A DNA stretch of 64,000 nt from a bacterium (GTDB taxonomy: Bacteria; Patescibacteriota; Dojkabacteria; GCA-016699595), in the NCBI GenBank assembly GCA_016699595.1, contig CP064982.1, positions 443,829-507,828 of the forward strand. Direction: 5' to 3'. The notes under the pieces were generated by a model, which worked only from the letters and a program-made list of their open reading frames with translations, was not told where the DNA came from and searched no databases. Every line of letters starts with the position of its first letter. Positions within the stretch are counted from its first letter, which is position 1. Positions 11,470 to 58,219 of the stretch are shown here, in pieces. Position numbers and translations under genes: made by a program.

Positions 11470-11919
11470 GGGCGCGAAAGGATTTCGACAGAAGTACTGA
11501 TCCAAAAATCTCATGCAGTGTTTTACCATTATTGACACTTCAAAATAAATTTGGTAGTGATTTTCACTAGCATACATAAATGCAAACATCAAAACACAAT
11601 TTGCTCAATTTGCAAAAAATGTAAAAAGTGCCCTATATTATAGTGGCTTACTAAATTTTGCATAATAATTGAGCGAAGAAATGCCATGCATTTCCATAGA
11701 ATTAATTCCTTGATGGTGGAGAATTGATCTATGTTTCAAAAACACCATATGTAATATCTCTGTTTTTTATATGCTCAGAGGTACAAAACTATGAAGCATA
11801 TACTATTTGAAATACTTTTATAGATTGACATTCAAATAGAAACTAAATCTATAAAAGCATGTTATAAAGATTTAGGAAACGACTTTTGGAAGCGAGTTCG
11901 AATCTCGCCGCGTCCACCA
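11470..11919 (+). ncRNA. ssrA: transfer-messenger RNA (tmRNA, ssrA), not present in the ORF track
   Basis: The 3' end ggaagcgagttcgaatctcgccgcgtccacca aligns position-by-position with the E. coli tmRNA 3' end (GGACGCGGGUUCAACUCCCGCCAGCUCCACCA): T-arm, acceptor strand and encoded CCA. The 5' end gggcgcgaaaggatttcgacag pairs with that 3' strand across 7 bp, including a G3:U70 wobble, and contains the conserved GGAUUCGAC-like motif. An internal reading frame (11582-11668) ends in TAA TAA. Confidence 0.6.
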
Positions 11920-11964
11920 ATGTCGAACTCAAAAGTACTTAATAATTTTTAAAGAACAAATTTT

Positions 11965-12195
11965 ATGTCAACAGATCAAATTCTAAACTACTTAATCATT
12001 GCGATTTCGGTAATCTTGTCCATTTCTATTCTTCTACAAGCAAGAGGTTCAGGACTTGGTAGTATGTTTGGGGGAGGAAGTGGTGGAGGTGAAATGTACA
12101 GGTCTAGAAGAGGACTTGAAAAGTTCTTGTATTATTTGACAGTGATTTCTGCAATCATTCTTGTTGCTTTGTGCGTAGCATCTCTAGTTATATAG
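11965..12195 (+). CDS. secG: preprotein translocase subunit SecG
   Basis: 76 aa with two TM helices and the Gly-rich SecG loop (LLQARGSGLGSMFGGGSGGG). Confidence 0.75.
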   Translation: MSTDQILNYLIIAISVILSISILLQARGSGLGSMFGGGSGGGEMYRSRRGLEKFLYYLTVISAIILVALCVASLVI

Positions 12196-12328
12196 TCTAA
12201 GTAGATGTAAAAACTAGCTTACTTCTACTTCATAGTTAGGAAATCCTAAATCATCCACAAACATTAAGATGATTTAGTTTGATAACTAAATTTGATAATT
12301 TAGAATATCACGGTTTTTTGAATAATAA

Positions 12329-14059
12329 ATGAATTTGAAATTCAGCAAAAACAAATTTTTGAAAAATGGAAGTCTCGCTTTCGTTTTCTTAGCTTTAGTA
12401 TTGATAATTTTCATACTTTATTCTGTGATAAGTTCAGGAAACATTGGGAAGGATTTATTCTCCCTAAAAAAGGAGATTACCGAAGGTGTTTTGGTTGACA
12501 AAAGCTTTATCGGTATACAAAGAGTATTTCCAACAAATTATAATACTTCAGATCTTGACAGATCTATATCTAGCTTGATTTATGAACCACTTTTCAGAGT
12601 TGATCAAGACGAAAATATAATTCCAGTACTTGCAGAAAATTTTAGTCAAGAAAATTACAAGTACACAATCAATCTCAAACAAAATATAAAGTTTTCAAAC
12701 GGTCAATCAATGACTGCTAACGATGTTATTTCTACTATCAATGCAATTAGAACAAAATTTAATGACAGTGCTACAAAAACAATATTTGATGAGTTGAAGT
12801 ACGATGCTCCCGATGATTTCACTATAACTTTGGATGTAGGCAAATATATACCTACTCTTTTTGAAGATTTATCTTTTGGCATAATGCCTGCAAGTGAACT
12901 TGACAAAGTCGCAGATAAATTTATTGGACTTGAAATATCTAGAAATCCCATTGGAACTGGACCGATGAAAAAAAATTCTTCGAGCGAAAAAGAATATGTG
13001 TTGGTAAAAAATGAATTTTTTAGAAGTGCAGAAAACATAAAAATTGATAAATATATATTTAAGTTTTTCAAATCTCAAACACAACTTGAGAGAAGTTTAC
13101 TTGGCAAAAGTGTTACTTTCACAAAGAATATTAGGTTAAATAAATTGAAAGTAATAGATGGGGATGTTTTGAAAAATGATAATTACTATTTAACAAATTA
13201 CGAATCAAATGTTTTTGCAAACAGATATTGGAGTCTTTATTTTAACCTAAAAGATGAGGCACTTATGAATGATACTGAAAAAGATACTTTGAAAGTATTT
13301 CAAGATAATAATGTTCGAAGAGCGATAAATCTCGGGATAAACAAATCAATAATAGCATCATCGATATCAACCAAATCTCAGCCTATGCAAAGAGCTCTCT
13401 CAGAGTTGAGTTGGGTAAATTTGGGGAATAGTAACCCATATTTGTTTGATAATTCCAAATCCGATACACTATTAAATGAATCTGGATGGCTAATGGTAGA
13501 AGGAAAAAGGCAAAAAAACCAGCAAGTACTTGAGTTCAAAATTACTTACTTCCAAAACGAAACCTCGAACGAGGTAATAAACTTAATTATAGAACAGTTA
13601 AAAAGTATAGGTATTCAAGCAGTAGCAGATCCAATATCGGATGCATCTCATTTGAATGATCAAATTCTCAAAACAAAACAATTTGAAGTGGTATTGCTCG
13701 GAACAGAAACATATATAGATCCAGATAGATCTCGACTTTGGCTGGAAAGTCAAATATCCCAAGATGGGTTGAATATATCTAGTTACAGAAGTAGTGAAAA
13801 AGTTCAAGATATAATAACTGGTAGTGAAATTTCTAGGGTTGATGATGCCTTGAATCGTGCAAGAAGCATAGAGGACAAAGAAACAAGGATAAAGTTGTAT
13901 AAAGATTTTGAGAAGATCATAGACAAGGATTCACCGGTAATTTTTCTTTATCAGCCAAATATCAACATAATATCTAATAAAGCACTCACTATGCCACTTG
14001 ATAATCTCGTTTCTCCTCAGAGTATTTACTACAACCTTGAACTTTGGAACTTGAATTGA
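12329..14059 (+). CDS. ABC transporter substrate-binding protein, family 5 (OppA/DppA-like), N-terminally membrane-anchored
   Basis: Has an N-terminal TM, then ...LIYEPLFRVDQDENIIPVLAE...YKYTINLKQNIKFSNGQSMTANDV..., which is typical of SBP_bac_5. No permease or ATPase genes are adjacent. Confidence 0.75.
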   Translation: MNLKFSKNKFLKNGSLAFVFLALVLIIFILYSVISSGNIGKDLFSLKKEITEGVLVDKSFIGIQRVFPTNYNTSDLDRSISSLIYEPLFRVDQDENIIPVLAENFSQENYKYTINLKQNIKFSNGQSMTANDVISTINAIRTKFNDSATKTIFDELKYDAPDDFTITLDVGKYIPTLFEDLSFGIMPASELDKVADKFIGLEISRNPIGTGPMKKNSSSEKEYVLVKNEFFRSAENIKIDKYIFKFFKSQTQLERSLLGKSVTFTKNIRLNKLKVIDGDVLKNDNYYLTNYESNVFANRYWSLYFNLKDEALMNDTEKDTLKVFQDNNVRRAINLGINKSIIASSISTKSQPMQRALSELSWVNLGNSNPYLFDNSKSDTLLNESGWLMVEGKRQKNQQVLEFKITYFQNETSNEVINLIIEQLKSIGIQAVADPISDASHLNDQILKTKQFEVVLLGTETYIDPDRSRLWLESQISQDGLNISSYRSSEKVQDIITGSEISRVDDALNRARSIEDKETRIKLYKDFEKIIDKDSPVIFLYQPNINIISNKALTMPLDNLVSPQSIYYNLELWNLN

Positions 14060-14088
14060 TTTTGATTATTTGGTAAGCTTAATTTATT

Positions 14089-14964
14089 ATGACTTATCCA
14101 AATGAAATCAATGGCAATAAAAACGAAATAAAGGAAAAGATAAGAAAGTTTCATGAATTAGAACCTCAAGCCAAAGATTCTATATTTACTTACAAGAATG
14201 TCTTAACCTCAGAAGGAAATAAGTCACGAAACAAGGAAATCAACAATGATTCCTATAAACAAGATCCCATTCGAATTGACTTAGTCAATCATAAATTTTC
14301 ATTATCAGGGTGTCTAACATCAATAATTCTTGTTATATTCATTATTTTTGCATTTATATACTTCTTAACAACACAATTTCCATCTGTCAAAGAAAAGGTA
14401 GATAGTTTTATTTCTAGTAACATTTCTCCTACTTTAGAACAGAAATTTCAGGGCATAAACTTGGACCTACCATTTCTCAAAAAAGACTCTAGCAATATAA
14501 GCAACGAGTATTTGTCATCTTTCATCTCAAAAGTTGCTAATGCTACAAATAACAATGATCAAGTGATCGTTCTAACATTGACAGAAGATGAGATAAATTC
14601 ATTTATTTCATCAAAGGATATTAAGGTAAGAAATTATAAAACCGAAACTATACTTAAGATCTTTCCAGAGAAAATCGATGTTGAAATAAAAGTCAAAGAT
14701 ATCATCGCCGGACATGCATATATAGGAACGAATTCACTGGGTAAGTTTCGAATAGATGGTGGTAAGATAGCAACAATTGACTTATCAATAAAAGACTTTC
14801 GTGACAAAGTTGGGAAATTACCACTAGGTATAGGTAATTATGATTTTGAAAAAATTCATGAAGATATTGAAACTCTGCTTTTTGATGGTAAATGGAATAT
14901 AGATAGAGTTGTTTTGAAAAATAAGGAGATGGATGTTTCGATCACAAGAAGAAGCAGCATATAA
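14089..14964 (+). CDS. hypothetical single-pass membrane protein
   Basis: 291 aa with one TM (~aa 75-95). No recognisable domain. Confidence 0.4.
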   Translation: MTYPNEINGNKNEIKEKIRKFHELEPQAKDSIFTYKNVLTSEGNKSRNKEINNDSYKQDPIRIDLVNHKFSLSGCLTSIILVIFIIFAFIYFLTTQFPSVKEKVDSFISSNISPTLEQKFQGINLDLPFLKKDSSNISNEYLSSFISKVANATNNNDQVIVLTLTEDEINSFISSKDIKVRNYKTETILKIFPEKIDVEIKVKDIIAGHAYIGTNSLGKFRIDGGKIATIDLSIKDFRDKVGKLPLGIGNYDFEKIHEDIETLLFDGKWNIDRVVLKNKEMDVSITRRSSI

Positions 14965-15016
14965 ATTTTGGTGAAGTAATAAGTTTTTGATGTGATATAT
15001 AAAATAATTAGTACCT

Positions 15017-15862
15017 ATGCTAATAATTATCCACGGAGAAGATAACTTCAATTCTATAGTAAAACTGAATAGTCTGAAAAAGGCAGCAAAGAGCAAAGGG
15101 TATACTCTGAAATCTATCGACTTAGACATTCTAGACGAATCTATCATAAATACTATCTACCAAAGTTCAGAAGAGTTTTTTTCGAACAAGCATCTTTATA
15201 TATTCAAAAGGATTTCAGATCTTGATAAAAAATTTTTTAGCATCTTTTATGACTTGCTAAAGCATAAATTTGCAAACAACAACAGTAAAGAAGATGTAGA
15301 TAATATTGCAATAATTTGGGAGGAGGTAACTATAAAAAATGAGCATCCTCTATGGGAAAATAAAGTAACTACATATTTTTTTCCACTATCAACAAATTCT
15401 GCTAAAGAAGCTAAGCAACTTGTTTCAAAACTGAACCTAAAGTTTGAATTGGACTTTGACTTGTCTATGGTTCAAAAGGTTACTGATTATATTGGATATG
15501 ACAAATTTACTATATTGAACGAAATGAAAAAGCTGTTTGTGCTTAAAAATGATAAAAGGGAACTTAATGAATCTAATGTACAATCATACTTATCATCTAG
15601 CTTTGAAATGTCACCGCAAAATTTGTTAGAATATCGAGAAGCAGATCTTGCTAATTTTGCTAGGAAAGTTAGAGTCTCGCTTTCACAAAAAGATTTTTAC
15701 AATTATATCTTAGCTATTTGGGCGAACAGTTTAATGAACTATGGAAATCGTAGATTAGCAAAAAATCTAATGTTATATGATTTTCAGTTTAAAAGTGGAA
15801 TAATCAAAGAGGAAGATGTTTTTATCTTATCATACAAAGATTGTTATGAAAAAAAATTATAA
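15017..15862 (+). CDS. possible DNA polymerase III delta subunit (HolA-like); weak call
   Basis: The N-terminus MLIIIHGEDNFNSIVKLNSLKK resembles the HolA start (I/L-Y-L-x-x-G-E-D). The size (281 aa) fits reduced-genome HolA. The rest is too divergent to be certain. Confidence 0.35.
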   Translation: MLIIIHGEDNFNSIVKLNSLKKAAKSKGYTLKSIDLDILDESIINTIYQSSEEFFSNKHLYIFKRISDLDKKFFSIFYDLLKHKFANNNSKEDVDNIAIIWEEVTIKNEHPLWENKVTTYFFPLSTNSAKEAKQLVSKLNLKFELDFDLSMVQKVTDYIGYDKFTILNEMKKLFVLKNDKRELNESNVQSYLSSSFEMSPQNLLEYREADLANFARKVRVSLSQKDFYNYILAIWANSLMNYGNRRLAKNLMLYDFQFKSGIIKEEDVFILSYKDCYEKKL

Positions 15863-39097: not shown

Positions 39098-41002
39098 ATG
39101 AACGAAACCAACCCACAAGAACAAAATAATTTTCCCTTTGATAATGCAGCAAATATAAACAATCAAAATCAAAGCAGTGCCGATAAATCACAGGTTAATA
39201 AACCCAGAATTTTTCGTAAATTATCAGGCATGAATTTGATAATAATAGGCATATTGGCGTTTTTATTATTAAGTAGTTTGATATCTTCAATAAGTTCAAA
39301 AATCGAAGAATCCAAGCAAATTGATTTTCAAAAGATAAGTACTGAGATCAAAAATGGCAATGTAAAAAGTATAGAGTACTGCAACAAAAATCTTACCGTA
39401 AGACTTAACGATGACAAGGAACTAAAAACCAACATATCTGTAAATCCAGTTAGTCTATTTTTTGATCAACAATCAGAGCTAAAGATAGATTCAACAAAAA
39501 TTAGCTATAAAGAATGCACTCAAGGGATACCAGCAGAAGACATAATTGGTTATGGCATTCAAGGGTTACTCTTACTTGGTATGGGTGTATTGATATGGAA
39601 GTTATTGAAAAGCATGAATGATCAAGGTTCAAAGATTTTTGGATTTGGTGAGAGCAAAGCAAAGATATCTATAGGCAAAAAGCAAGACATTACACTTGCA
39701 GATGTTGCTGGCATTGAAGAAGCAAAGGAAGAATTGAATGAAATTGTACTATTTCTGAAAGATCCGAAAAGATTCCAAGATATGGGAGCAAGAATTCCAA
39801 AAGGTATCTTGATGGTAGGAGCGCCCGGAACTGGTAAAACACTTTTAGCTAGAGCAATTGCAGGTGAAGCTGGAGTTCCATTTTTTGCAACTTCAGGTTC
39901 AGAGTTTGAGGAAATGCTTGTTGGAGCAGGAGCATCTAGAGTTAGAGATTTGTTTGACAAAGCAAAGAAACTGCAACCAAGTCTAATTTTTATAGATGAA
40001 ATAGATGCAGTGGGAAAAAGAAGAGGAACAAATATAAATTCAAATGCAACCGAGCAAACATTAAATCAAATTTTAGTTGAAATGGATGGCTTTGAGAAGA
40101 ATCAAAATGTAATCGTCATCGCAGCAACAAATAGACCTGATGTACTTGATCCTGCACTACTTCGACCTGGAAGATTTGATAGAAAACTAACTTTAGATTT
40201 GCCAGATCAAGAAGGAAGAACAAAAATTCTCGAAATACATGCAAAAAACAAACCACTTGCAGCTGATGTTGATCTAAGCAAAATTGCAAAAAGAACGATA
40301 GGTTTTACTGGTGCTGATCTTGAAAATACTTTGAATGAATCTGCAATTGCTGCTGCCAAGGCAGGTAAAAAAGTTATTGACACTCACGACATTGAAGAAG
40401 CTACATTGAAAGTTGTTATGGGTTCAGCAAGAAAACGAAGGAGAACTCAAAAAGAATTAAACATTGTTGCTTATCATGAAGCAGGACATGCTGTAGTTAC
40501 GAAATTTGTTCCTGAGGCCGATCCAATTCACAAGATAACTATAGTAAGTCGTGGAATGAGTGGAGGTATGACCATGCACATGCCTGAAGATGATGAAACA
40601 ATGACAAGCAGGACGAAAATTTTGTCTGAAATCAAAGTTCTGCTTTCTGGACAAATTGCTGAAAAACATTTTATGGGTGATATCACAACCGGAGCAAGCA
40701 ACGATATTGAGAGAGCTACAAAGTTGGCTCGTGGAATGGTGAAGAAGTTTGGTATGACGAAACTAGGCATGATAAATTATGGACTTGATGAGGAAGATTC
40801 TGGAACTTACTTCCCAACGAAAGATTATTCAGAAGCAACTGCTAGCGAGATTGATGTTGAGGTAAATAGGATAATTGAGGACTGTTATAAAGAAGCAGAA
40901 AAGATCATATTGGAAAATAAAGATAGACTTGAAAACTTGAAAAATGCTTTGTTGGAAAGAGAGATCATAAATGCAGAAGAATTTGAGGAAATTATGAAGT
41001 AA
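39098..41002 (+). CDS. ftsH: ATP-dependent zinc metalloprotease FtsH
   Basis: Has N-terminal TMs, the AAA module GAPGTGKTLLARAIAGEAGVPFF, the SRH and the HEAGHA zinc site. Confidence 0.95.
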   Translation: MNETNPQEQNNFPFDNAANINNQNQSSADKSQVNKPRIFRKLSGMNLIIIGILAFLLLSSLISSISSKIEESKQIDFQKISTEIKNGNVKSIEYCNKNLTVRLNDDKELKTNISVNPVSLFFDQQSELKIDSTKISYKECTQGIPAEDIIGYGIQGLLLLGMGVLIWKLLKSMNDQGSKIFGFGESKAKISIGKKQDITLADVAGIEEAKEELNEIVLFLKDPKRFQDMGARIPKGILMVGAPGTGKTLLARAIAGEAGVPFFATSGSEFEEMLVGAGASRVRDLFDKAKKLQPSLIFIDEIDAVGKRRGTNINSNATEQTLNQILVEMDGFEKNQNVIVIAATNRPDVLDPALLRPGRFDRKLTLDLPDQEGRTKILEIHAKNKPLAADVDLSKIAKRTIGFTGADLENTLNESAIAAAKAGKKVIDTHDIEEATLKVVMGSARKRRRTQKELNIVAYHEAGHAVVTKFVPEADPIHKITIVSRGMSGGMTMHMPEDDETMTSRTKILSEIKVLLSGQIAEKHFMGDITTGASNDIERATKLARGMVKKFGMTKLGMINYGLDEEDSGTYFPTKDYSEATASEIDVEVNRIIEDCYKEAEKIILENKDRLENLKNALLEREIINAEEFEEIMK

Positions 41003-47347: not shown

Positions 47348-49723
47348 CTACATTCTTCCTCTTCCCTGTATCTCTTGATCAACTGCATTTCTATCCCTTC
47401 CATACCTGAGTCTTGACAACTCTTTGATATTTCTAAATGTCCTTTCATTGACTGGGTACTCTGTTCCAGCTATTATTGTTGGCTTTACTGAATCATAGAA
47501 TGTGCTCATTGAAAATGGCGGAGGATATTCACCGTTTACGAGAAGTTTGATATAAGCATTGAAGTTTTCTAAGTTTATCAAGTCGTTCTGTGAAAATATA
47601 GGTGCGAATTCATTTTGCAAATAACTTGCATCTTCAACTCCAACTTTGAATGACAGCATAGTACCAACATTACCAAATACAGCATGTTTGATTTTCTCAT
47701 CAATTTGGGCTATATATTGATTCCCTATAATCAGATTTAATCTATATTTTCTTGCTTCAGACAATATTTGGGCAAATTCTTCAGAAGCAAAATTTTGAAA
47801 CTCATCAACATAAAGATAAAAATCCTTTCTGTCACTTTCATTCATATCAGCTCTACTCATAGCAGCAGACAATATCTTTGGAATCAATAACAATCCCAAA
47901 AATTGTGCATTTTCTTCACCAACTAAACCTTTTGATAAATTTACAATTAAAATTTTCTGTTCATCCATTACTTTTCTAAAGTCAAACGAAGATACTGATT
48001 GACCGAGTATATTTCTCATCATCCTATTCGTGATAAATCTATCAAACTTAGAAATAATGTAACCTAAAACTTCAGATTTATGAAATTCATTTGTTTGAGC
48101 AATTTCTTTTTCCCAATACTCTCTAACTAGCGGATCTTGAATATATGGCAAGTACATTTTTTTCAAAAATTGATAGTCATATAAAATTCTTGCAACTTCA
48201 ACCAATGTACCTCCAGGTCTTGACATAACTGTAAGTAATGCATTTCGAACTGATCTTTCAAGTCTAGGTCCAACTATACCTTGCTTGTTTGGGTCAAACA
48301 TTTTGTAAAGCAAACCGATAAATGAATTTGCAACACGATGTTTATCATCTTCAGAGTAAGCTTCTACGATATTGAATGCTAATGGTCTCTCAACATCAGC
48401 TGGATTGAAATAAATGACATCTTCAGCCCTCTCAGATGGAATTCTTTCAAGTACCCATTCTGCAGCATCTCCATGAGGATCGAGATACGCAATGCCGTGC
48501 CCCTGTTTGATATCTTGAATAATCATTGATTGCATAGCATATGATTTCCCAGCTCCAGTTTTTCCAACCATGTACATATGCCTCCTTCTATCATCAGGTG
48601 CAATCCAAACTTGTTTTTTTGAACCTCGAAAAATTGAATTTCCAAGCCAAACACCTGGTGGTCCAGAAGGCACCTCTTCTGATGCAGGTGCTCTTTTACT
48701 TAACAGCCAATGTATATAAGGTGTTTGCACATTCTTGTTTGGAAAGTGAAATACTGTTGCTAGTTCTTCAGTATTTAGAGTAGTTGTTTGTCTTGGATTT
48801 CTATAAATAAAATCTTCTTCAAATTGTTTTTTTTGCTTTTCGTTTTTAAATTTAACCTTTTTGAATCTATTGGAACCTTGAAGTTCCATAGGATCAAACG
48901 AGGCAAGTACATTTTCTACATGCATTTTTGCGACTTCAATAGTTTTTGAAGCTGCTACAACCCTGATATCTACCAAGAAACCTACTTTTAGAGTTTTCTT
49001 CTCAACGCTACCTACTGATTCATCATCTCTAGGTTTTGACTTCTTTCCCTCTTCGGAACTGCCTGAATCTCGTACAGATTTGATAAATGATCTCCCTGCC
49101 TTTCGCCATTTTTTACTAGCTGGGGTTATCAAAATTTGCACTGCAACACCTTCACCTTCATTCATCCGACTCATAGCAGTTGTTACAGCTGACATAGTAT
49201 CCACATGCAATTCAGAAAATACCTTTATAGGTTTATACGAAACTTCAGCAAGCTTCAAGCCTGCATATTCAACCACTGAATCTTCATGAAATATATTGTA
49301 TTCATCTACTTCTTTCACATCTGCCTCCTGGTAGCTTGCATGTATTTGTTTTTCAACCAGTTGGGAAATTTTTTTGGGAACTATGACATAAAATCTTATA
49401 GACTCAGGAAGTCCCACTATCTCAAAAGAAACATAGTTTGGAGTTTTGAATAATTTTTCGTGCCACTTCGTAGGAACGGACGAAATAGATGTAAGTGCAG
49501 CAAACATCTGTTCTGCAGCGTGTACATCAACATCATTCGCTTTTGGTAACCTAACTTCATAACAAACACTATTCAAAGCTCTTTTCAATTGTTGTTCTTC
49601 TCTTCGTCTTCGTGCAAACATCATAAATAATCCTATCCCAATAGCTACAAGCAAAGTAAGTAATATCAATAAAACTAAGTATAATATGGCAGATGAATTT
49701 GAAGTTGATGATACTGTTGTCAT
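47348..49723 (-). CDS. membrane-anchored P-loop ATPase of the TraD/VirD4 (T4CP)/FtsK-HerA superfamily
   Basis: Has one N-terminal TM and a ~350-aa linker. Walker A is MYMVGKTGAGKSYAM, followed by YLDPHGDAAE (the DPxG[DE] block typical of T4CP/FtsK). A ~245-aa insertion precedes Walker B LYVDEFQNF (the spacing is T4CP-like, consistent with an all-alpha domain), and an Arg-rich C-terminus follows. A VirB4-like alternative is not excluded. Confidence 0.6.
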   Translation of the reverse strand: MTTVSSTSNSSAILYLVLLILLTLLVAIGIGLFMMFARRRREEQQLKRALNSVCYEVRLPKANDVDVHAAEQMFAALTSISSVPTKWHEKLFKTPNYVSFEIVGLPESIRFYVIVPKKISQLVEKQIHASYQEADVKEVDEYNIFHEDSVVEYAGLKLAEVSYKPIKVFSELHVDTMSAVTTAMSRMNEGEGVAVQILITPASKKWRKAGRSFIKSVRDSGSSEEGKKSKPRDDESVGSVEKKTLKVGFLVDIRVVAASKTIEVAKMHVENVLASFDPMELQGSNRFKKVKFKNEKQKKQFEEDFIYRNPRQTTTLNTEELATVFHFPNKNVQTPYIHWLLSKRAPASEEVPSGPPGVWLGNSIFRGSKKQVWIAPDDRRRHMYMVGKTGAGKSYAMQSMIIQDIKQGHGIAYLDPHGDAAEWVLERIPSERAEDVIYFNPADVERPLAFNIVEAYSEDDKHRVANSFIGLLYKMFDPNKQGIVGPRLERSVRNALLTVMSRPGGTLVEVARILYDYQFLKKMYLPYIQDPLVREYWEKEIAQTNEFHKSEVLGYIISKFDRFITNRMMRNILGQSVSSFDFRKVMDEQKILIVNLSKGLVGEENAQFLGLLLIPKILSAAMSRADMNESDRKDFYLYVDEFQNFASEEFAQILSEARKYRLNLIIGNQYIAQIDEKIKHAVFGNVGTMLSFKVGVEDASYLQNEFAPIFSQNDLINLENFNAYIKLLVNGEYPPPFSMSTFYDSVKPTIIAGTEYPVNERTFRNIKELSRLRYGRDRNAVDQEIQGRGRM

Positions 49724-50127: not shown

Positions 50128-52632
50128 TTATAAATTTATCTCTTTCACAATTATCTCTATATTAGCAAAATTTGTTGGAAGTTTCTGCAAAAACTTTGGA
50201 AGAAACTTTGGTTGGATGGTTGCTGAAACTATCTGCATTTTGTCATTTGACAAAGTCATAACTTCGCTCTGACTCTTACCCGATATAGATTTTTTTAGTT
50301 CAAGTGACGAAAACTCTGGTAAGGTTGAGGCGTTTATATGCAAAGAGAATATTATATTGTCAGCATTTACCCTGATATTATCGAATGAATAGTCAAACCT
50401 TTCAGTAATTTCCTGAGTATACTCTGAGACTCCATTACCCGTCAATTCTTTCTTTTTAACTTGGTATAGTTCTTTTGCTTTTGCCTCTATTGTCCCCTTA
50501 TCCAGTCCCTTAACTATCCCTTTGATTGTCACAGTAGCTGAAACTTCCTCTGCTTGTGCCCCAATTTGTGTAGAATATTCTTCTTTAACTATAGTATATT
50601 CCGGTTCTTGAGAAAGAAGAATAAAGCTATCTTTTGTCTTTGTTGTCAATTCACTTTTGATTTCTTCTTTAAGTTTATTCGATAGCTTTGAATTTAATTC
50701 ATCTTTTTCTTTTTGCGAAAAAATTAAGACCATATTTGTCTTCCCACCTGCTATATTGTTTGAAAAATTTGCAACAAGTTCGTCTGCGCTATAGTTAGCA
50801 ACTTTGCCTGTAGTATAAGTTGTACCAGTTATATTGTAATCCTCTCCAGATACAGTAGCAGTTATTGGTATCTGTGCTAGTAAACCATACACTGTGCCAG
50901 TGATTTGCTGAGTAGCATTAGGAACTACTCCACCTTTTGAAGCCTCATATTCAAGTGTCTTACCTCCTGCAGTTATAATTACTTTATAATTTTGTGGTAA
51001 AGTTATAGGGTTCGGTGTTTTATTGTATATATTGATAAATCCAGTAGCTTTAGAACCATTATCAACTTTGTTTGTAATTGTAACATTGTCAGAAGATGTT
51101 TTCTCAATCTCAACAGGTACAATGGCTAGACCTCCATTTTGATCTGTAGTCTTAGCTTCAATATCTTGAATAATCTCAATTTTGATAGGTTTCGGTTCAA
51201 TAGTAACTTGAGCTGTTCTAAGAGAATAAATCAACAAAACCAAAATAGGGAACAGAAGAATAATCGGCATCAAAATCATTATCTTTTTACCACGGAACAG
51301 CCCATCTGCTTTACCAAAAAAGTCAAGTATACTTTTCTGTAAATTCTGCAGAACAAACTTAAGTTTAGGAAATAATACGTCCATTAATCTCTTACCTAGA
51401 TATTTATTTGATTGAATTGAACGACTAGTTTTCTCTCCCTTGATACCTTTCATGTACACTCTATCATTAAATATACTAGCTCGTTTTTTCTTTATAGAAA
51501 CACCTTTTGCAATATTTACCTCTAGAGCTTTAGCTCTACCCTTTACCTCGTGGGGAAACTTTACCTTGCTTAAAAAATGTTTTAGAGAGTTTCTCTCAAC
51601 TTTAGAATATATTGGACCTATCTCTTGATCTACTGAATCTAAATTAGGGTTAACCCAATTTATTTCGCTTTGATTATTTATGTCATTAATTATATCTTCT
51701 GAAGGATTTTTTTTTTGGAGAATTGAAGCTTCCTCTATGCCATCTTCAATAATTTTACCTGAGACTTCATCGAATTCAGCAACATCACCACCAGCAACTA
51801 AAATGAAATTCTCATCTATAATCAGTTTTCCTCTTCGTAATTTTGGTGCTGTGTTTGGGGTGGTCTCACTGTCTTTCTGAGCTTTATAAGTATTGTACAA
51901 TTCCTCAAATGTAGGTTGCTTTTGTACTTCATCTTCTAATGATTCCTCAACAGTACTAATTAGAATACTTTCATCACTATTTACAGTTTTTATTGAGTTT
52001 CTAGCACTTTCAGATGAAGTATCTTCGAGAGTTTCAGGTTTGTCGTCATTTTGATTTTCAATTAGTAAGTTCAAAGTATTTTCTTCGTAATCAACTTTTG
52101 CATCAGCATCTTTAAGATTCTCTAGATAATCTTCATCTTTACTAGCGCTGATTAAACTTTCTTCGAGATTATCTTGAGAAATGTCTACACTCTCATTAGG
52201 ATCAACGTCAAAAATTTCAGTTTTTTCTGATTCTACAATGGCAGCATTTTGACTTGCAATTTGCCTTAAAGATAATAACTTCCTTTTCGTGTTATCCATT
52301 CTTCGAGTAAAACTTTCTTTCAAATCATCTGCTATTTGCCACTTTTGACTATCAGCCTGCCCAGAATCTTGTATTACTACCAAACTCACCTGCTTTCCTA
52401 GTTTTTCAGCTTCTTTGTCTTTTGTTTGAATTATGACAATTTTGTTTAGCCTTAGAATTTCCTTTGCAAGGATTCTCAAACTTACAATATTTGTAAATAC
52501 CTCTGAACCACTTGGAACAACTAGCAGAACTTTTTCACTACTAGTCTCCAGTATACTTTCAATGATAAAAGTCATCTCATCATCTACATCTAGAAAAATT
52601 TTTGTTATGTTTTGATTAGAAATCTTTGACAC
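50128..52632 (-). CDS. hypothetical 834-aa bitopic membrane protein (acidic cytoplasmic N-domain, central TM, Thr/Gly/Asn-rich extracytoplasmic C-domain)
   Basis: Has a single strong TM (KIMILMPIILLFPILVLLIYSL at ~aa 455-478). The N-terminal 90 aa look like an alpha/beta module (KVLLVVPSGSEV...). No recognisable enzyme motif. It lies immediately downstream of the FtsA homologue. Confidence 0.5.
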   Translation of the reverse strand: MSKISNQNITKIFLDVDDEMTFIIESILETSSEKVLLVVPSGSEVFTNIVSLRILAKEILRLNKIVIIQTKDKEAEKLGKQVSLVVIQDSGQADSQKWQIADDLKESFTRRMDNTKRKLLSLRQIASQNAAIVESEKTEIFDVDPNESVDISQDNLEESLISASKDEDYLENLKDADAKVDYEENTLNLLIENQNDDKPETLEDTSSESARNSIKTVNSDESILISTVEESLEDEVQKQPTFEELYNTYKAQKDSETTPNTAPKLRRGKLIIDENFILVAGGDVAEFDEVSGKIIEDGIEEASILQKKNPSEDIINDINNQSEINWVNPNLDSVDQEIGPIYSKVERNSLKHFLSKVKFPHEVKGRAKALEVNIAKGVSIKKKRASIFNDRVYMKGIKGEKTSRSIQSNKYLGKRLMDVLFPKLKFVLQNLQKSILDFFGKADGLFRGKKIMILMPIILLFPILVLLIYSLRTAQVTIEPKPIKIEIIQDIEAKTTDQNGGLAIVPVEIEKTSSDNVTITNKVDNGSKATGFINIYNKTPNPITLPQNYKVIITAGGKTLEYEASKGGVVPNATQQITGTVYGLLAQIPITATVSGEDYNITGTTYTTGKVANYSADELVANFSNNIAGGKTNMVLIFSQKEKDELNSKLSNKLKEEIKSELTTKTKDSFILLSQEPEYTIVKEEYSTQIGAQAEEVSATVTIKGIVKGLDKGTIEAKAKELYQVKKKELTGNGVSEYTQEITERFDYSFDNIRVNADNIIFSLHINASTLPEFSSLELKKSISGKSQSEVMTLSNDKMQIVSATIQPKFLPKFLQKLPTNFANIEIIVKEINL

Positions 52633-52657: not shown

Positions 52658-53890
52658 TTAATTTAGGAGACTTTCAAGTGCTATTGCAGAAACACTTACA
52701 TCATCAATATCTGTAAGCAGATTCATTTCATCAACCAAATTTCTCAAATCTCTAGGATAAATAAGTTCTGGCTCCGGAAATTTCTCAAAAGGCAAATAGT
52801 TTAGCCAAGCAAAAGTTCTTATACTTTCTTGAATTTGAGATAACTTTGCACCTCCACCTGAAAGAAAAATTCTCGTAGGATACGTTTCTACTTCATCCAT
52901 ATCAGATAATGACACTTGAATCCCAGAAACTAAAACCCTAGCATCTTTTTCAAAAGCTCTTTGAATCATTTGCTTATCATTTAGTTTTATGACATCAGTT
53001 TTTGGATCTTCAGACATTCTAATTTTTATTTTTTCAGCCTTCAAATAATCAATATTTAATAATTTTTGCACCCTGTGTGTAAATGCTCTTCCTCCTAAAG
53101 CAAACATTTTTACTCCAACAAAGCTACCATTCGAAACCATAGCAACATCAGTAGTACCTGCACCTATATCAGCAAAAACTCCCGAGAATCGCTCTCTTTC
53201 CGAACCTGAATAGTTATTTGCAATTGCAAATGGCACAACAGTAATTTTGGCTATTGAAAGGCCAAGATACTCTGCAATCGTTCTGATACTTTGGATATGC
53301 TGATCTTGTGTGAACGAAAAGAAAATTTTAAATGAAACACTTTTTCCTTTGAAACCAACTAAATCACTAACTCTAAGTCCATTTATATAACAATCTTTCC
53401 TAGTAGATGAAACTTCAACTATTTCTGCATGTGAGATACCATGTTTTTTACCAATTTCGACTTTTATGCTATCACTTGTCTCCTCTCTTAGCTTGGACTC
53501 AATATCGTGAAGTTCCTCTTCAGTAATGATCTGCTCTGGCATTTCTCTTTCATAGTTTGCATAAACAACTTCACCATTAACTATTTCTCCTGCTATTCCT
53601 AAATACAAACTTTCTGGATACTCTTTGGATTCTAGATTTTTGCATGCTTCTGCGATCGCTAAGTCACAATTTTCCTTGACATTTTGTATATTTGTAATCA
53701 TTCCACCCTTCATCGCACCAGCTTGTTGTCGAGATCTACCATAACCTACGGTATGTACTCTTCCATTTTCTTTGAAAAACACCAATGCTTTTACCCACTC
53801 GGTTCCAATATCAAGTGCCAAAACATTTCCCGATCTAGAATTTCTTCTTGGCTCAATATTTTGTTTTTTGAATTTATCGAAAATTGACAT
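52658..53890 (-). CDS. ftsA: actin-like ATPase, FtsA homologue (FtsA/PilM family)
   Basis: VLALDIGTEWVKALVF...GYGRSRQQAGAMKGGMITNIQNV parallels the FtsA N-terminus (LVVGLEIGTAKVAALVGE...GVGSCPSRGMDKGGVNDLESVV). GVFADIGAGTTDVAMVSNG...GGRAFT...AEKIKI parallels the FtsA phosphate-2/adenosine motifs. A 1C-like insertion is present. Confidence 0.7.
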   Translation of the reverse strand: MSIFDKFKKQNIEPRRNSRSGNVLALDIGTEWVKALVFFKENGRVHTVGYGRSRQQAGAMKGGMITNIQNVKENCDLAIAEACKNLESKEYPESLYLGIAGEIVNGEVVYANYEREMPEQIITEEELHDIESKLREETSDSIKVEIGKKHGISHAEIVEVSSTRKDCYINGLRVSDLVGFKGKSVSFKIFFSFTQDQHIQSIRTIAEYLGLSIAKITVVPFAIANNYSGSERERFSGVFADIGAGTTDVAMVSNGSFVGVKMFALGGRAFTHRVQKLLNIDYLKAEKIKIRMSEDPKTDVIKLNDKQMIQRAFEKDARVLVSGIQVSLSDMDEVETYPTRIFLSGGGAKLSQIQESIRTFAWLNYLPFEKFPEPELIYPRDLRNLVDEMNLLTDIDDVSVSAIALESLLN

Positions 53891-53899
53891 TAGAAAGAC

Positions 53900-54505
53900 T
53901 TATTTATTTACAACTGAATTCAAAGCATTTTGTTTTGCTTGTTCATAAAGTTCATTACCAATTATTTTCAAAGACTGTCGTATCATTACTTTATCTTTAT
54001 CACTTGCAATATTTTTATCTGTAGAATTTAAATAAGTGTTTGGAAAACTAAATTCTTTGATCTTCTGTGGATTTTTTTTGACATCAAATGTATTTGTTCC
54101 TAAGTATTCTGCATAAAATAAAGTATTTGAAAATGAACTTCCATTTACTTTTGGATTGTCTTTTTTATAACCATAACAACTAGCTATATAATAGTACTTT
54201 TCCAATCCTTTCATTGCTGCAGATTCATCAATACTGTAATCTATAACTCTCAAAGCACAACTATATTTGTCAGTTAACTCATTTGTTTTCAAATAATAAT
54301 TTTCTAAAGTATATTTCAACATTTCTATAGTTTGTGAATCAACTTGAGATCCTGAAACGTTGGAATTATAAAGTTTATATAGGTTTTTTGAATTTACTAA
54401 TGATGCATTAAATCCTAAACTTGTTACCAAAAAGAAAACATTACAACAACAAGATAATATTAGCAATACAGTTAAAATTATTATTAAAATACTTTTAGTG
54501 TTCAT
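53900..54505 (-). CDS. hypothetical bitopic membrane protein, CCC-motif family member 3
   Basis: Has an N-terminal TM with LILSCCCNVFF and a ~170-aa extracytoplasmic domain. It is directly upstream of ftsA on the same strand. Confidence 0.45.
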   Translation of the reverse strand: MNTKSILIIILTVLLILSCCCNVFFLVTSLGFNASLVNSKNLYKLYNSNVSGSQVDSQTIEMLKYTLENYYLKTNELTDKYSCALRVIDYSIDESAAMKGLEKYYYIASCYGYKKDNPKVNGSSFSNTLFYAEYLGTNTFDVKKNPQKIKEFSFPNTYLNSTDKNIASDKDKVMIRQSLKIIGNELYEQAKQNALNSVVNK

Positions 54506-54550
54506 AATATTAAAAATTAAAACTATAAACTTATGAAAATTGAATAAGTT

Positions 54551-55636
54551 TTACGAATAAACTCCAATATCTTCAGGTATAAACTGTCTGAAGTTTTGTG
54601 GAGAAATTTGTATACGATCAACTTTCTGCTCAACTATAATTCTTGCAACTTTCCTAGCAACATTTGTTAAATTTCTTTCAAGCTGCCTTATACCTGCGTC
54701 GAATCCAAGCGGCCTTATCATAAGTGGCCAAACATCATTTGTAAAAGTCATTTGATTTTCACTTAGTCCAGTAGCTTTCCGAATCTTTGGAAGCAAGTAG
54801 TTTTCTGCAATATTTGCCTTTTCAGCATCATTATAACTAGAGAATCGAATTATTTCCAAACGATCAAGTAAAGCAGCAGAAATCGTACCTAGTGTATTTG
54901 CAGTTGCTATGAACATTACATTTGACAAGTCAATTGGGTAATCTATATAAGCGTCCATATAAGTTCCATTTTGCTCAGGGTCAAGAATTTCAATCAAAGC
55001 TGCATTATAATCAAACCTCTCAACTTCATTTCCAGCAGTTTTATCCATTTCATCAAGCAAAATAATTGGATTCATAGTTCCAGCTCGTTGGAGTGCTTTT
55101 ATGATCTGTCCCGGTTCTGCTCCTGTTACATATCTTGGCATTCCCTTCAATCTTCCAATATTTCCAAGTGCATTGAGTGAAATTCTGACAAACTTTTTAT
55201 TCAAGGCTTCAGCTAATGATTTTGCCATGGTAGTTTTTCCAATACCTTGAACTCCAACAAAACATAAAATAGGTGCGTGAGAAGAATTTCCTGCAAGATT
55301 ACTCATATCTTCACTTGCTCGGCTAATCTTTCCACTTTGTAAATTCATAACAGCTACATATTCAGCAATTCTATTTTTGATTTCGTTTAATCCAAAATGA
55401 TTATGGTTGAGAATATCTATTGAATGATTGATTTCTAAATTATCCTTTGTGTAATTGCCAAAAGGAATTTGTAATATATTTTGGATATAATGTTCAACAA
55501 TATCAAATTCTGTTGAAAAATTACCAGCATCAGCCATGCGAGAAAGCCTATCAAGCATTTTGAGTGCCTTTTCCTTCAAACCAACTGGCATACTGGAATT
55601 CTCAACTTGTATTTTTAATGACTTTATTTCATCCAA
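54551..55636 (-). CDS. Lon-type AAA+ ATPase module, lacking both the Lon N-domain and the S16 protease domain
   Basis: It aligns across its length with Lon residues ~280-600. The matching blocks are KEKALKMLDRL (Lon KEKALKELDRL), HFGLNEIKNRIAEYVAV (HYGLEKVKERILEYLAV), PILCFVGVQGIGKTTMAKSLAEAL (Walker A), ILLDEMDK (Walker B), EILDPEQN, FIATAN and LLDRLEIIRFSSY. The ORF ends where the protease domain would begin. Confidence 0.7.
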   Translation of the reverse strand: MDEIKSLKIQVENSSMPVGLKEKALKMLDRLSRMADAGNFSTEFDIVEHYIQNILQIPFGNYTKDNLEINHSIDILNHNHFGLNEIKNRIAEYVAVMNLQSGKISRASEDMSNLAGNSSHAPILCFVGVQGIGKTTMAKSLAEALNKKFVRISLNALGNIGRLKGMPRYVTGAEPGQIIKALQRAGTMNPIILLDEMDKTAGNEVERFDYNAALIEILDPEQNGTYMDAYIDYPIDLSNVMFIATANTLGTISAALLDRLEIIRFSSYNDAEKANIAENYLLPKIRKATGLSENQMTFTNDVWPLMIRPLGFDAGIRQLERNLTNVARKVARIIVEQKVDRIQISPQNFRQFIPEDIGVYS

Positions 55637-55711
55637 TCTAAATTTATTTTACTAAAATTTGGGAAAGAAAGTAATGAAATTAGTTCAAAATGAACCAATA
55701 CATTGAAACTT

Positions 55712-56923
55712 TCAATTTATCAATCCTTTTTTATATTTAACCCTCAAAACTCTTTCAACTGCATTATCCAACCTTTCTTCTGAAACTTCTCCATTCTCAA
55801 CTCCAAGTTTAATTTGCTCAAATGCAACTTCAATCTGAGTAGGATCTGTTAGAAATAACATATCATGTCCAGCAATTACTGTTTTTGTATATTTCTCTGC
55901 TTCATCTTTGAAAACTTCAGCACTCAAATTACTTGAAATTACTATCCCACTATAATTGATTTCATTTTTCAACATATCAGTTACAAACTTTTTTGAAAAG
56001 GTAACTTGGTTATCATCAACTTTTGAATACTTTGCAGCTGAAGTCATAACAAAATCAGAGTTGTTTGCAATTTGAAAGTAAGGCTTTAAGTCACCACTTT
56101 TGAGTTCATCTAAAGTCATTTCGCTTATTTGAAAAGATTTATTTGGATCAAGTTGGAATGTTCCAGTACCTGGAAAATACTTCATAGTCGAGCTTATATT
56201 TTCATTTTGTCCTAGTATTATTTGCTCAGCAAGCGGTATCCATTTATCAAAGTTACGATCCCAACCTTGCATTTTCAAGTAGCTTGTCGAACCTAGCAAA
56301 CCTTCAGTTATTGGAGAAAAATTTACATTAAATCCACCTTCGTTCAAGCTTTGCCCCTTTGACAAACCGTAGCCATAAGAAATTTTTGGAGTATTGTTTC
56401 GTTCCAGAAAATAGTAACTTACACCTGTTGACCCTTCTCCATAAAGATGATTTGTCTGATCCCAAGGAACTTTTCGCACTGCACCTCCATCATCGTCTGT
56501 AGAGATAAAAAGTTTGATTTTTGAATTTTTTTGTAAATCTTCATTGAACCTTTTAGTTGTTGCAAGATCTGAAATGTTGCTATTGGATAAGTAAATACCT
56601 CCAACATTATAAGTATCTAAGATTGTTTGAGTCGAATTAGAAAAAGTTTGACCATTTATACCAACAAACAGCATCTGTCCTATTTTCTGTTCAAGATTCA
56701 TTGTCAGTACTTCTCGTTTTGGAATGTTCCTTTGTTTGTAAATTTCATACCATGATTGAAATCCCGTGATAATGTCAACCTTTTGAATATCAATTTGAGT
56801 CAAAGCATTTAGCTTATCAAGTGTAACTTGGTACTTATATTCAGTTGAAAAATAAAGCGCACTAGCTAAAGCAAGAATTATAATTCCGCCAACAATAAAT
56901 AATTTTGTGAAAAAAGAAGACAT
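55712..56923 (-). CDS. glycoside hydrolase family 3 N-terminal domain protein (NagZ-like beta-N-acetylhexosaminidase), membrane-anchored
   Basis: Has an N-terminal TM, then KIGQMLFVGINGQ...VGGIYL...KIKLFISTDDDGGAVRKV... matching the GH3 N-domain (KIGQ...GG.IL...PL.IA.DQEGG.V.R). Confidence 0.7.
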   Translation of the reverse strand: MSSFFTKLFIVGGIIILALASALYFSTEYKYQVTLDKLNALTQIDIQKVDIITGFQSWYEIYKQRNIPKREVLTMNLEQKIGQMLFVGINGQTFSNSTQTILDTYNVGGIYLSNSNISDLATTKRFNEDLQKNSKIKLFISTDDDGGAVRKVPWDQTNHLYGEGSTGVSYYFLERNNTPKISYGYGLSKGQSLNEGGFNVNFSPITEGLLGSTSYLKMQGWDRNFDKWIPLAEQIILGQNENISSTMKYFPGTGTFQLDPNKSFQISEMTLDELKSGDLKPYFQIANNSDFVMTSAAKYSKVDDNQVTFSKKFVTDMLKNEINYSGIVISSNLSAEVFKDEAEKYTKTVIAGHDMLFLTDPTQIEVAFEQIKLGVENGEVSEERLDNAVERVLRVKYKKGLIN

Positions 56924-56940
56924 AAGAATAAAGTGATTAT

Positions 56941-57147
56941 TTAGATCAACAAAAATATCAAAACCAATATCAACATTGCTAAACTTGCCAACACTAGAAC
57001 GATAATTCTATTACGAAATATCTCACTTCTCTTCCTAAAATCAAGATACAAAGGTGCCTCAAATGACAATGTACTTTGATCTTTTTCTTTTATGACGAAT
57101 TTATCTTCGGAAATTTGTTGAATCTTTTGATACAATAGGCTTCGCAT
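56941..57147 (-). CDS. hypothetical small membrane protein
   Basis: 68 aa with a C-terminal TM. It may be spurious. Confidence 0.2.
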   Translation of the reverse strand: MRSLLYQKIQQISEDKFVIKEKDQSTLSFEAPLYLDFRKRSEIFRNRIIVLVLASLAMLILVLIFLLI

Positions 57148-57217
57148 ATGTTATATTTTATATTAGTATATGAATTAGTTCAATAGCAAGTATTTCATAA
57201 CTTATAAATCTCGAGTC

Positions 57218-58219
57218 TTGTCACAAAACCTTCTAAATAAATCCCTTCTAACTATACTCTTATTTTTGCTATCCATCAATGTTGGTATGAAATATGCAGA
57301 AGTCTTAACGCCAATTAGTAAAAATGCAAGCGAGATGATGTTCATGATTGAAGGTGAAGAAATAAAAAGTATTCATCCTATTGCTTCAAATATTCCGAAC
57401 TATTTTTTTACGAAAAATACAAGCATCAAAACATTAGCTAAATTGCACTTTGAATCTATTGATTCAAAGTCATTGCTTACAGATAGGTTGAAACTAGAAA
57501 ACTTCACTGCAGAATCCATACTTATTAGCAGTACAAATGGCGATATGATATTGGATAAATCTATAAATGAACAGTTACAAGTAGCCTCAATCACAAAGTT
57601 ACTTAGTATACTTACTGCACTAAAATATGAAGACAATTTAGATCTTTACTTTACTATACCCGAGGAAACAGATGAGGTTACTGGCAATGTTCTAGGGTTT
57701 CAGAAAGGTGAAAAGTATAAATTTGCAGATTTAATTGCAGCAAGTCTGATTTTTAGTTCAAATGACGCAATTAGAGCAATTGAAACAAATATAGAAGGTC
57801 TATACAGAATTAGTTTTGTTGAAGAAATGAACAAGCTAGCATCTGATCTCAATATGACGAGTAGTTCATTTGGAGATTCCATAGGCTTTGATCTTCCAAA
57901 TTCATACTCTACCGCTGAAGACATTATGAAACTATCCAAGTTCGCATATCAAAATGACATTATCAGAAGATACTCTACGGTAAAAGAATTCAGGATTTAT
58001 AGTGAGGGTGGAAAAGTAATTTCATTTCGTAATACGAATGAAATGCTGAAGTATGAGAATGTATATGGATTGAAAACTGGAACTACTGAGCAAGCAAAAG
58101 AGTGCTTAGTTATGATACTCAGACATTATGATACAGACTATTATGTAGTGATACTTGGATCAGGTGATAGATATCAAGATGCGACTAAAATATACCAAAT
58201 TATGGAATCTTTGAAATAG
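57218..58219 (+). CDS. dacA: D-alanyl-D-alanine carboxypeptidase (peptidase S11, PBP5-like)
   Basis: Has the SxxK (ASITK), SxN (SSNDA) and KTG (KTGTT) motifs in the correct order and spacing. An N-terminal signal/TM is present. Confidence 0.8.
   Translation: MSQNLLNKSLLTILLFLLSINVGMKYAEVLTPISKNASEMMFMIEGEEIKSIHPIASNIPNYFFTKNTSIKTLAKLHFESIDSKSLLTDRLKLENFTAESILISSTNGDMILDKSINEQLQVASITKLLSILTALKYEDNLDLYFTIPEETDEVTGNVLGFQKGEKYKFADLIAASLIFSSNDAIRAIETNIEGLYRISFVEEMNKLASDLNMTSSSFGDSIGFDLPNSYSTAEDIMKLSKFAYQNDIIRRYSTVKEFRIYSEGGKVISFRNTNEMLKYENVYGLKTGTTEQAKECLVMILRHYDTDYYVVILGSGDRYQDATKIYQIMESLK

Follow-up and report, generated by a model that had tools for sequence, protein, structure and literature searches.

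A stand-alone LonA-type AAA+ module in Dojkabacteria belongs to a conserved patescibacterial family without the Lon protease domain

The DNA analyzed here, 64,000 nucleotides of a Dojkabacteria genome (GenBank assembly GCA_016699595.1, contig CP064982.1, forward-strand positions 443,829 to 507,828), is referred to below as the window, and coordinates are those of the window. At positions 54551 to 55636 of the reverse strand, which also carries the features described below unless otherwise stated, it contains a complete gene for a stand-alone LonA-type AAA+ protein of 361 amino acids (aa), here called Lon-AAA. The gene has a TTG start codon and ends with a TAA at 54551-54553. Another in-frame TAA is situated 12 nt 5′ of the start codon, and the start residue is the same in P0002 and P0004, the two nearest distinct homologues of the window protein. 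A GH3 gene (PF00933) ends 75 nt upstream of Lon-AAA and a gene for an unrelated 201-aa protein starts 45 nt downstream.

Pfam recognized two domains in the 361-aa protein and nothing else, namely, AAA at residues 124 to 266 (E value, 2.4e-21) and Lon_lid at residues 287 to 338 (2e-10). The open reading frame (ORF) begins at about Lon position 249 to 254, with neither the LAN/PUA-like N domain (PF02190) nor the coiled coil in it, and ends at position 571 of the 795-position Lon model, with no Pfam match to the S16 peptidase domain (Lon_C, PF05362). The NCBIfam model TIGR00763 (“endopeptidase La”) was matched at an E value of 2.4e-97 over positions 254 to 571 of 795 only, the score of 327.3 bits being below the curated equivalog cutoff of 608.05. 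The E. coli-type Lon model NF008053 was covered from position 249 to 579 of 784, with 231 bits versus a cutoff of 891. The best hits of a PDB sequence search, B. subtilis Lon (3m6a; 2e-70) and human LONP1 (3e-70), involved the AAA+ module only, and an AlphaFold2 model built from a 60-sequence alignment (predicted local distance difference test [pLDDT] score, 82.6) gave a query-normalized template modeling score of 0.83 on the AAA+ modules of LONP1, MtaLon, and EcLon. We therefore have very little doubt that the gene encodes a stand-alone LonA-type AAA+ module. The preliminary description of this DNA had said as much, with the ATPase motifs intact, the protein cut at both domain boundaries, and the missing domains encoded in neither flank, and it is confirmed on all these counts by the Pfam, TIGR00763, and PDB matches, the presence of all catalytic residues, and the genes on either side, the Lon match being well above what chance would give.

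The missing domains were sought by tblastn, the queries, all excised from canonical Lons, being 107 S16 domains and 101 N-terminal regions and the targets, in all frames, the window plus 42 loci of the family described below, with about 10 kb on each side of the gene (721 kb). No S16 or Lon N-domain signal was found in these 721 kb outside the Lon-AAA gene itself; the sole matches came from three aberrant queries with extra AAA segments and all fell inside the gene. The 105 clean S16 domains matched nothing in the 64-kb window. As a positive control, the S16 queries matched 41 of 41 canonical loci, and an adjacent split partner is thus excluded within about 10 kb on each side. A separately encoded protease domain, which the preliminary description had named as a refuting outcome, is ruled out over that distance, and the exclusion reaches no further.

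A total of 2,831 proteins matched Lon-AAA at an E value of ≤1e-10, the best 120 of which are all 354 to 489 aa long, with AAA and Lon_lid and without Lon_C or a LON N-domain. In an exhaustive search of representatives of 50%-identity clusters, more distant short forms (343 to 548 aa, 40 to 53% identity) were recovered, and the canonical Lons of 770 to 880 aa (about 40 to 43% identity) came after them. At least 172 distinct homologues of 343 to 548 aa have the same architecture, from Dojkabacteria, Shapirobacteria, Woykebacteria, and other Patescibacteria. Labels from GTDB for the metagenome-assembled genomes involved are Dojkabacteria, Shapirobacteria, Woykebacteria, Nomurabacteria, and “Patescibacteria group”; automatic labels of such genomes also include “uncultured Saccharibacteria/Gammaproteobacteria.” Source names among the best matches include “AAA family ATPase [Candidatus Dojkabacteria]” and “Lon protease 1 [Patescibacteria group],” and the labels in public databases are only “AAA family ATPase” or, wrongly, “ATP-dependent Lon protease.” The window protein has every trait by which we define the family: about 340 to 550 aa, AAA and Lon_lid only, G[LVI]QG in Walker A, a variable pore loop followed by [AS]EPGQ, RP[LV]G[FY]DAG before sensor-2, and an end at the AAA-to-protease linker. 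At all 42 family loci (L001 to L042) the ORF is 348 to 472 aa long and stops at one alignment position, versus Lons of 770 to 920 aa at the canonical loci (L043 to L083) where the ORF is complete on the contig. A Woykebacteria member, L042 (9968-11334), is apparently frameshifted, with a 363-aa ORF followed by a 100-aa ORF that carries on the lid-domain similarity, and this may be a sequencing error or a pseudogene.

A neighbor-joining tree of 102 sequences (334 columns) separated stand-alone from canonical proteins in 200 of 200 bootstraps, confirming the distinct protease-less clade that the preliminary description had proposed to look for; as the tree is unrooted and simple, what it demonstrates is one clan and not the direction of change. 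Compared with a 95%-identical relative from another sample (L084), Lon-AAA has a nonsynonymous-to-synonymous rate ratio (dN/dS) of 0.067, with all 19 substitutions outside the motifs. Overall, the gene is functional and belongs to a conserved, monophyletic, LonA-derived AAA+ family of Patescibacteria that has lost the N-terminal substrate-recognition and S16 domains. At the nucleotide level, window 53600-57500 and L084 1-3701, from closely related strains, show a mosaic of 84 to 100% identity per 150-nt block, with divergent blocks overlapping both ends of Lon-AAA and a dS of 0.51 for this gene versus 0.12 and 0.18 for the flanking genes, which looks like homologous recombination between strains.

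The ATPase site was compared between 54 stand-alone proteins and 108 canonical Lons. Walker A reads GVQGIGKT (G128-T135, 55232-55255), the family consensus being G[LVI]QG[VIT]GKT versus GPPGVGKT in LonA, and Walker B reads IILLDE (55049-55066), with D195 and E196 both 100% conserved. The second region of homology (54860-54898) extends from sensor-1 N247 (54896-54898) to the Arg finger R259 (54860-54862), both again 100% conserved and equivalent to N473 and R484 of EcLon (PMC9569914). The Lys and Thr of Walker A, the Asp-Glu of Walker B, the sensor-1 Asn, the Arg finger, and the sensor-2 Arg, all conserved in canonical LonA as well, are present in 100% of the 54 family members. The window protein has retained all residues required for ATP binding and hydrolysis, and with them each motif of an HCLR-clade AAA+ ATPase (GxxGxGK[ST] in Walker A, hhhhDE in Walker B, the Asn of sensor-1, the Arg finger, and the Arg of sensor-2). 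Between Lys134 of Walker A and Asp195 of Walker B there are 60 residues, a spacing characteristic of LonA, compared to 82 in LonBA (PMC9569914).

In AAA+ unfoldases, the aromatic residue of pore-loop 1 is needed for translocation. Canonical LonA has R-G-H-R-R-T-Y-[IV]-G-A-[ML]-P-G-R in this loop, with the Tyr in 99% of the 108 sequences; where canonical Lon reads GHRRTY[IV]GAMPG, the window protein has GMPRYVTGAEPG (G165-G176, 55109-55144), with Val170 at the canonical Tyr position and Tyr169 one position earlier, a displacement that the preliminary description had missed. The stand-alone consensus is G-x-[SP]-[RK]-x-x-x-[DG]-[AS]-E-P-G-Q, in which the [AS]-E-P-G-Q after the loop is fixed family-wide and the Tyr position holds Ser (24%), Glu (22%), Phe (16%), Asn (11%), or others (n = 54); a basic residue at position 168 ([RK]) is conserved in 94% of members. 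A wider survey of 172 unique members found 107 different pore-loop-1 sequences, with an aromatic residue at the canonical position in 23% and anywhere in the loop in 33%. Relatives with 65 to 70% identity to the window protein have the loops APKTKPG and MPKHIPA. Aromatic (QSRAFLD, QSRAYLD) and nonaromatic loops both occur in all three C-terminal classes of the family, which points to repeated loss from an ancestor that had the paddle. Thus, the aromatic paddle of pore-loop 1, the translocation element (PMC9569914) for polypeptide threading, is free of constraint in the family while the ATPase residues are all kept. Pore-loop 2 (residues 199-211, 55004-55042) has a two-residue insertion relative to LonA.

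Outside these motifs, the protein begins with a bundle of five helices (residues 1-107, 55316-55636) that precedes the alpha/beta core and corresponds to about residues 249 to 340 of E. coli Lon. A family-specific insert before strand beta-1 (residues 104-122, 55271-55327) is predicted to be disordered (pLDDT, 41 to 47); its C-terminal end carries the conserved motif M-x-x-L-x-G-[NS]-S-x-H-A-P despite the predicted flexibility, and in some other members it grows to about 100 Pro/Ala/Gln/Thr-rich residues. The lid (alpha) subdomain (residues 267-355, 54572-54838) holds sensor-2 R317 (54686-54688) and, before it, the motif R-P-L-G-F-D-A-G (residues 309-317, 54686-54711; family R-P-[LV]-G-[FY]-D-A-G), versus Y-T-R-E-A-G in Lon. 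We considered the LGF of this motif as a ClpP-docking, IGF-like loop; this is unlikely, as it forms a tight lid turn three residues before the sensor-2 Arg and is not part of a long loop at the surface. The C-terminal tail, IPEDIGVYS (residues 353-361, 54554-54580), is predicted to be flexible (pLDDT, 33). It is at least 90% conserved in the window's subclade, all members of which stop at the same residue, and it aligns with the AAA-to-protease linker of Lon, where B. subtilis Lon reads ..FIGKRI. An HbYX-type proteasome-docking motif, suggested by the terminal V-Y-S of the window protein, was rejected family-wide: other subclades end in …GPLS, …GIVS, …FLPQW, or …IQMY, and the tail is at the linker position.

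Lon-AAA is one of six codirectional genes (from 57147 to 50128) separated by gaps of 9 to 75 nt and with no terminator-like site on their strand, making cotranscription plausible. Near Lon-AAA, Rfam detected no RNA elements, and promoter-like sites were at chance level (36 versus 31 ± 5.5). The 201-aa protein downstream (53900-54505) has a hydrophobic N terminus and no Pfam match. By phmmer it had no similarity to the genes in the same position at five family loci (L001, L003, L006, L022, and L028), and since it is not conserved there even among close relatives it is probably not a partner; we dropped it as a candidate, and with it the suggestion that Lon-AAA remodels this neighboring membrane protein. 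Next comes a 410-aa FtsA/PilM-like actin-fold protein (52658-53890), conserved as a neighbor in the window's subclade only. With 79.6 bits compared to the FtsA cutoff of 175.85, it is not a bona fide FtsA. Its gene lies no more than three genes downstream of Lon-AAA in 8 of the 12 informative loci with a subclade A-type tail (the window, L001, L003, L004, L005, L009, L031, and L085), directly adjacent in L009 and L085. All eight have the tail [IL]P-x-D-x-G-[VI]-[YF]-x, and the genes upstream of Lon-AAA differ among them (GH3, L25, or an 856-aa protein). L006, L022, L028, and L033 lack the FtsA/PilM-like gene, as do subclades B and C. The proposed FtsA link is accordingly supported in part: for some loci of one subclade, for a gene that falls below the FtsA cutoff, and not for the other two subclades.

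The FtsA/PilM-like gene is followed in the window by the gene for an 834-aa protein (50128-52632) that is hydrophobic in a central segment and matches nothing in Pfam or NCBIfam, and in relatives by homologues of 608 to 710 aa. A large protein of this kind (608 to 834 aa) always comes after the FtsA/PilM-like gene, that of L001 (13569-15701) having only a weak GlxA beta-barrel match, and the two form an uncharacterized two-gene module conserved in Dojkabacteria. At many Dojkabacteria loci, a gene for a 171- to 200-aa protein without a Pfam match (cluster c21; reverse-strand 11671-12186 in L001, with homologues in L003, L004, L005, L031, L034, and L006) separates Lon-AAA from the FtsA-like gene and is encoded on the opposite strand; the window has no such gene. 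Just past the window's cluster, at 47348-49723, a VirD4/TraD-like coupling protein of 791 aa is encoded. At subclade B loci (in L012, at 11360-15454), Lon-AAA is adjoined on the opposite strand by genes for a VirB4/TraG-like ATPase and a PrgI-family protein, so that genes resembling those of type IV secretion systems recur near the family.

The three subclades differ in gene order. In subclade A, that of the window, it is YidC, L25, Lon-AAA, one or more variable small genes, the FtsA/PilM-like gene, the 600- to 834-aa membrane protein, GroES, and GroEL; in L003, ClpP and a ClpB/C-type ATPase come after GroES-GroEL, placing ClpP about 7 kb downstream of Lon-AAA. In subclade B (…GPLS tail) it is SHMT, ThyX, dCTP deaminase, and Lon-AAA, the opposite strand carrying VirB4/TraG-like and PrgI genes, and in subclade C (Shapirobacteria type) it is S15, PNPase, Lon-AAA, sometimes UDG, RNase J, and, further on, FtsK. 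No partner gene conserved family-wide emerged from comparing the loci of the three subclades. A UDG-superfamily gene (cluster c28) adjoins Lon-AAA downstream or lies no more than three genes off in six loci of different subclades (L006, L011, L013, L033, L035, and L036). The wider context consists of housekeeping genes (rpoBC, aminoacyl-tRNA synthetases, FtsH, YidC/L25, and GroES/EL). An FtsH gene is indeed encoded where the preliminary description had placed it (39098-41002), and substrate delivery to FtsH by Lon-AAA finds no support: the gene is 13.5 kb away on the other strand, and FtsH has its own AAA+ module. The window further contains, on the forward strand (11470-11919), a tmRNA gene whose tag, ANIKTQFAQFAKNVKSALYYSGLLNFA, is unusually long at 27 aa and has …NFA as its last residues. 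In Mycoplasma, long tmRNA tags ending in …YAFA are Lon specific; the long tag is curious here, given that the only visible Lon relative in the genome has no protease.

What the family does is a matter of weighing. Our favored, tentative reading, to which we give somewhat less than an even chance, is that of a nondegradative ATPase without canonical threading, i.e., an ATP-driven remodeler, chaperone, or assembly factor. The protein would assemble into a hexameric, Lon-like ring, as suggested by the conserved Arg finger, which in Lon works across the subunit interface, together with the Lon-like fold. ATP hydrolysis would then drive remodeling without proteolysis and without processive threading, a natural version of the proteolysis-independent activity reported for Lon; that canonical threading is absent is suggested by the repeated loss of the paddle while the motor stays under strong selection. 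Clients might be engaged via the helical bundle kept at the N terminus, disordered segments of low complexity, or the flexible but conserved tail at the C terminus, and in the window's subclade the downstream FtsA/PilM-like module would be the most plausible client or anchor. The preliminary description had spoken of an unfoldase uncoupled from proteolysis. The protease-less part of that phrase stands; the unfoldase part is weakened, because the Tyr of pore-loop 1 is lost or displaced in most members, including the window protein.

Several points weigh against the favored reading. A third of the members, of the QSRAFLD and QSRAYLD types, keep an aromatic residue in the loop, and in the window protein a Tyr lies one position off, such that some threading ability is possible. 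The neighborhoods differ between subclades and no common client emerges from them. The peptidase partner search covered only the window and about 10 kb on each side of the gene at the 42 loci, the tree is a simple unrooted neighbor-joining tree, and the canonical sample was biased to the Lons most like the query. The oligomeric state, the ATPase activity, and the clients are predictions.

The alternatives differ widely in how well they fare. That the gene is an artifact or a decaying relic, i.e., a frameshifted, truncated, or misassembled full-length lon, is practically inconceivable. One family locus, L042, does look frameshifted in the lid region; however, the same boundaries recur in more than 170 homologues from independent assemblies, the intergenic gaps of 75 and 45 nt are too small for the missing domains, no S16 or N-domain remnants exist in any frame, the dN/dS is 0.067, and the catalytic motifs are fully conserved. 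The frameshift or assembly error that the preliminary description had set as a refuting outcome is excluded by the same evidence. A split AAA+ protease, in which Lon-AAA would be the ATPase half and dock on a peptidase encoded elsewhere (S16, ClpP, or HslV), perhaps via its C-terminal tail, is in our judgment distinctly unlikely. HslU and the proteasomal ATPases dock via C-terminal tails, and the …IPEDIGVYS tail (hydrophobic-Tyr-X) is invariant in position and sequence in the window's subclade, yet predicted to be disordered. Across the family, however, the tails differ and the penultimate Tyr is subclade specific, and the tail sits where Lon has its AAA-to-protease linker. The ClpP gene 7 kb downstream in L003 adjoins a ClpB/C-type ATPase of its own. 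Some members do keep an aromatic-hydrophobic pore loop, but threading into a chamber needs the paddle that most lack. Finally, the 64-kb window and the 42 loci, searched to about 10 kb from the gene, contain no S16 domain, a result whose reach around the gene, rather than across whole genomes, still leaves some room for a distant partner.

The two other alternatives start from the neighborhood. In a more specific form of the idea in the preliminary description, Lon-AAA might be a dedicated remodeler or anchor partner of the FtsA/PilM-like protein and its large membrane partner in a divisome- or pilus-like module, its tail perhaps binding the actin-fold protein much as terminal peptides of FtsZ and PilN bind FtsA and PilM. 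The eight loci with the gene within three positions downstream in spite of differing upstream genes, their shared tail motif, and the tight codirectional arrangement in the window all argue for this. Still, subclades B and C and four subclade A-tail loci do without the gene, an opposite-strand gene breaks the cluster in L001, L003, L004, L005, and L031, the correlation is confounded by common ancestry, and neither is the actin-fold protein a bona fide FtsA nor the 201-aa membrane neighbor conserved; on balance we regard such a partnership as unlikely. A nucleic acid-directed ATPase, the freed module acting on DNA or RNA rather than on proteins, appears improbable. The AAA+ lid of Lon binds DNA and RuvB belongs to the same HCLR clade; the PDB entry 6n2i calls the AAA+ fragment of EcLon “DNA-binding”; and the basic loop residue [RK]168, the UDG-family gene at six loci, and the neighbors in subclades B (SHMT, ThyX, and dCTP deaminase) and C (PNPase and RNase J, near FtsK) would suit such a role. 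These neighbors are nonetheless common housekeeping genes that differ by subclade, with no consistent operon partner among them, no nucleic acid-binding domain has been gained, and the reading is purely contextual. A role as a component of a defense system (Dodola) was also considered and rejected: the DolB match reached only 54.5 bits, a generic AAA similarity, and the neighbors had no PADLOC matches.

The nondegradative remodeler can be extended to a bolder proposal, which we put forward as a rather long shot: that a large part of the Patescibacteria (candidate phyla radiation [CPR]) possesses a Lon-derived ATPase ring with neither proteolytic nor threading activity, which would make it a new functional class among the HCLR-clade AAA+ proteins, and that in Dojkabacteria this ring may have been recruited via its conserved C-terminal peptide to a membrane-associated, FtsA/PilM-like actin-fold module. 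If true, this would be a natural “protease-free Lon,” isolating the long-debated proteolysis-independent function of Lon. The combination of an intact ATPase site, purifying selection, and a free pore loop amounts to a natural experiment on the Lon motor minus proteolysis; it bears on proteostasis in genome-reduced episymbiotic bacteria, and the family supplies clonable proteins with which to ask if a Lon ring acts as a chaperone or remodeler without threading. In our literature search, no account of Lon without its protease, or of any Lon in CPR/Patescibacteria, came up. Lon is defined in reviews as one chain in which ATPase and protease are always coupled (PMC9569914), and MEROPS-based censuses, being anchored on the protease domain, are blind to a protease-less relative.

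Compared to known systems, the family is closest to LonA (TIGR00763; MEROPS S16.001; E. coli Lon, B. subtilis LonA, and human LONP1), to which its AAA+ module is homologous end to end with about 40 to 43% identity. Shared are the 60-residue Walker A-to-B spacing, Lon_lid, sensor-1, the Arg finger, sensor-2, and the short helical bundle before the core. Unlike LonA, the window protein lacks the S16 protease domain with its Ser-Lys dyad, the coiled coil, and the LAN/PUA-like N domain; conservation of the pore-loop-1 Tyr is lost, GPPG is replaced by G[LVI]QG and YTRE by LGFD, pore-loop 2 is two residues longer, and there is a disordered insert before beta-1. Of five features of LonA, it thus has the AAA+ module and lacks the P domain, the N domain, a score above the curated cutoff, and the pore-loop Tyr. 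LonB and LonBA likewise do without the long N-terminal region of LonA. They keep the P domain, and in LonB a membrane anchor is inserted in the AAA+ module (PMC9569914), whereas the window protein has neither P domain nor transmembrane insert and its Walker spacing is 60 instead of the 82 of LonBA.

ClpX and HslU belong to the same HCLR clade of AAA+ proteins and are also single-module, stand-alone ATPases of similar size, HslU with a functional C-terminal tail such as Lon-AAA may possess. They differ in keeping the aromatic pore-loop-1 paddle, which the window protein lacks, and in having defined docking elements and partner genes, neither of which is demonstrable for Lon-AAA within the loci compared. 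Proteolytically inactive Lon acts as a chaperone, as seen with yeast Pim1 and human LONP1. The family would have in common with it an ATP-dependent function of the Lon motor that is independent of proteolysis; in those cases the function belongs to point mutants or is a secondary activity of full-length enzymes with N domains and intact pore loops. The chaperone role of LONP1 is mentioned in PMC9657610. The most instructive counterpart is LonC (MtaLonC), “a Lon-like protease with no ATP-powered unfolding activity” (PMC3391209), likewise a natural Lon derivative that has given up one of two coupled activities. It is the mirror image of the stand-alone family: LonC kept the protease with a dead ATPase, and the patescibacterial proteins kept the ATPase with no protease.

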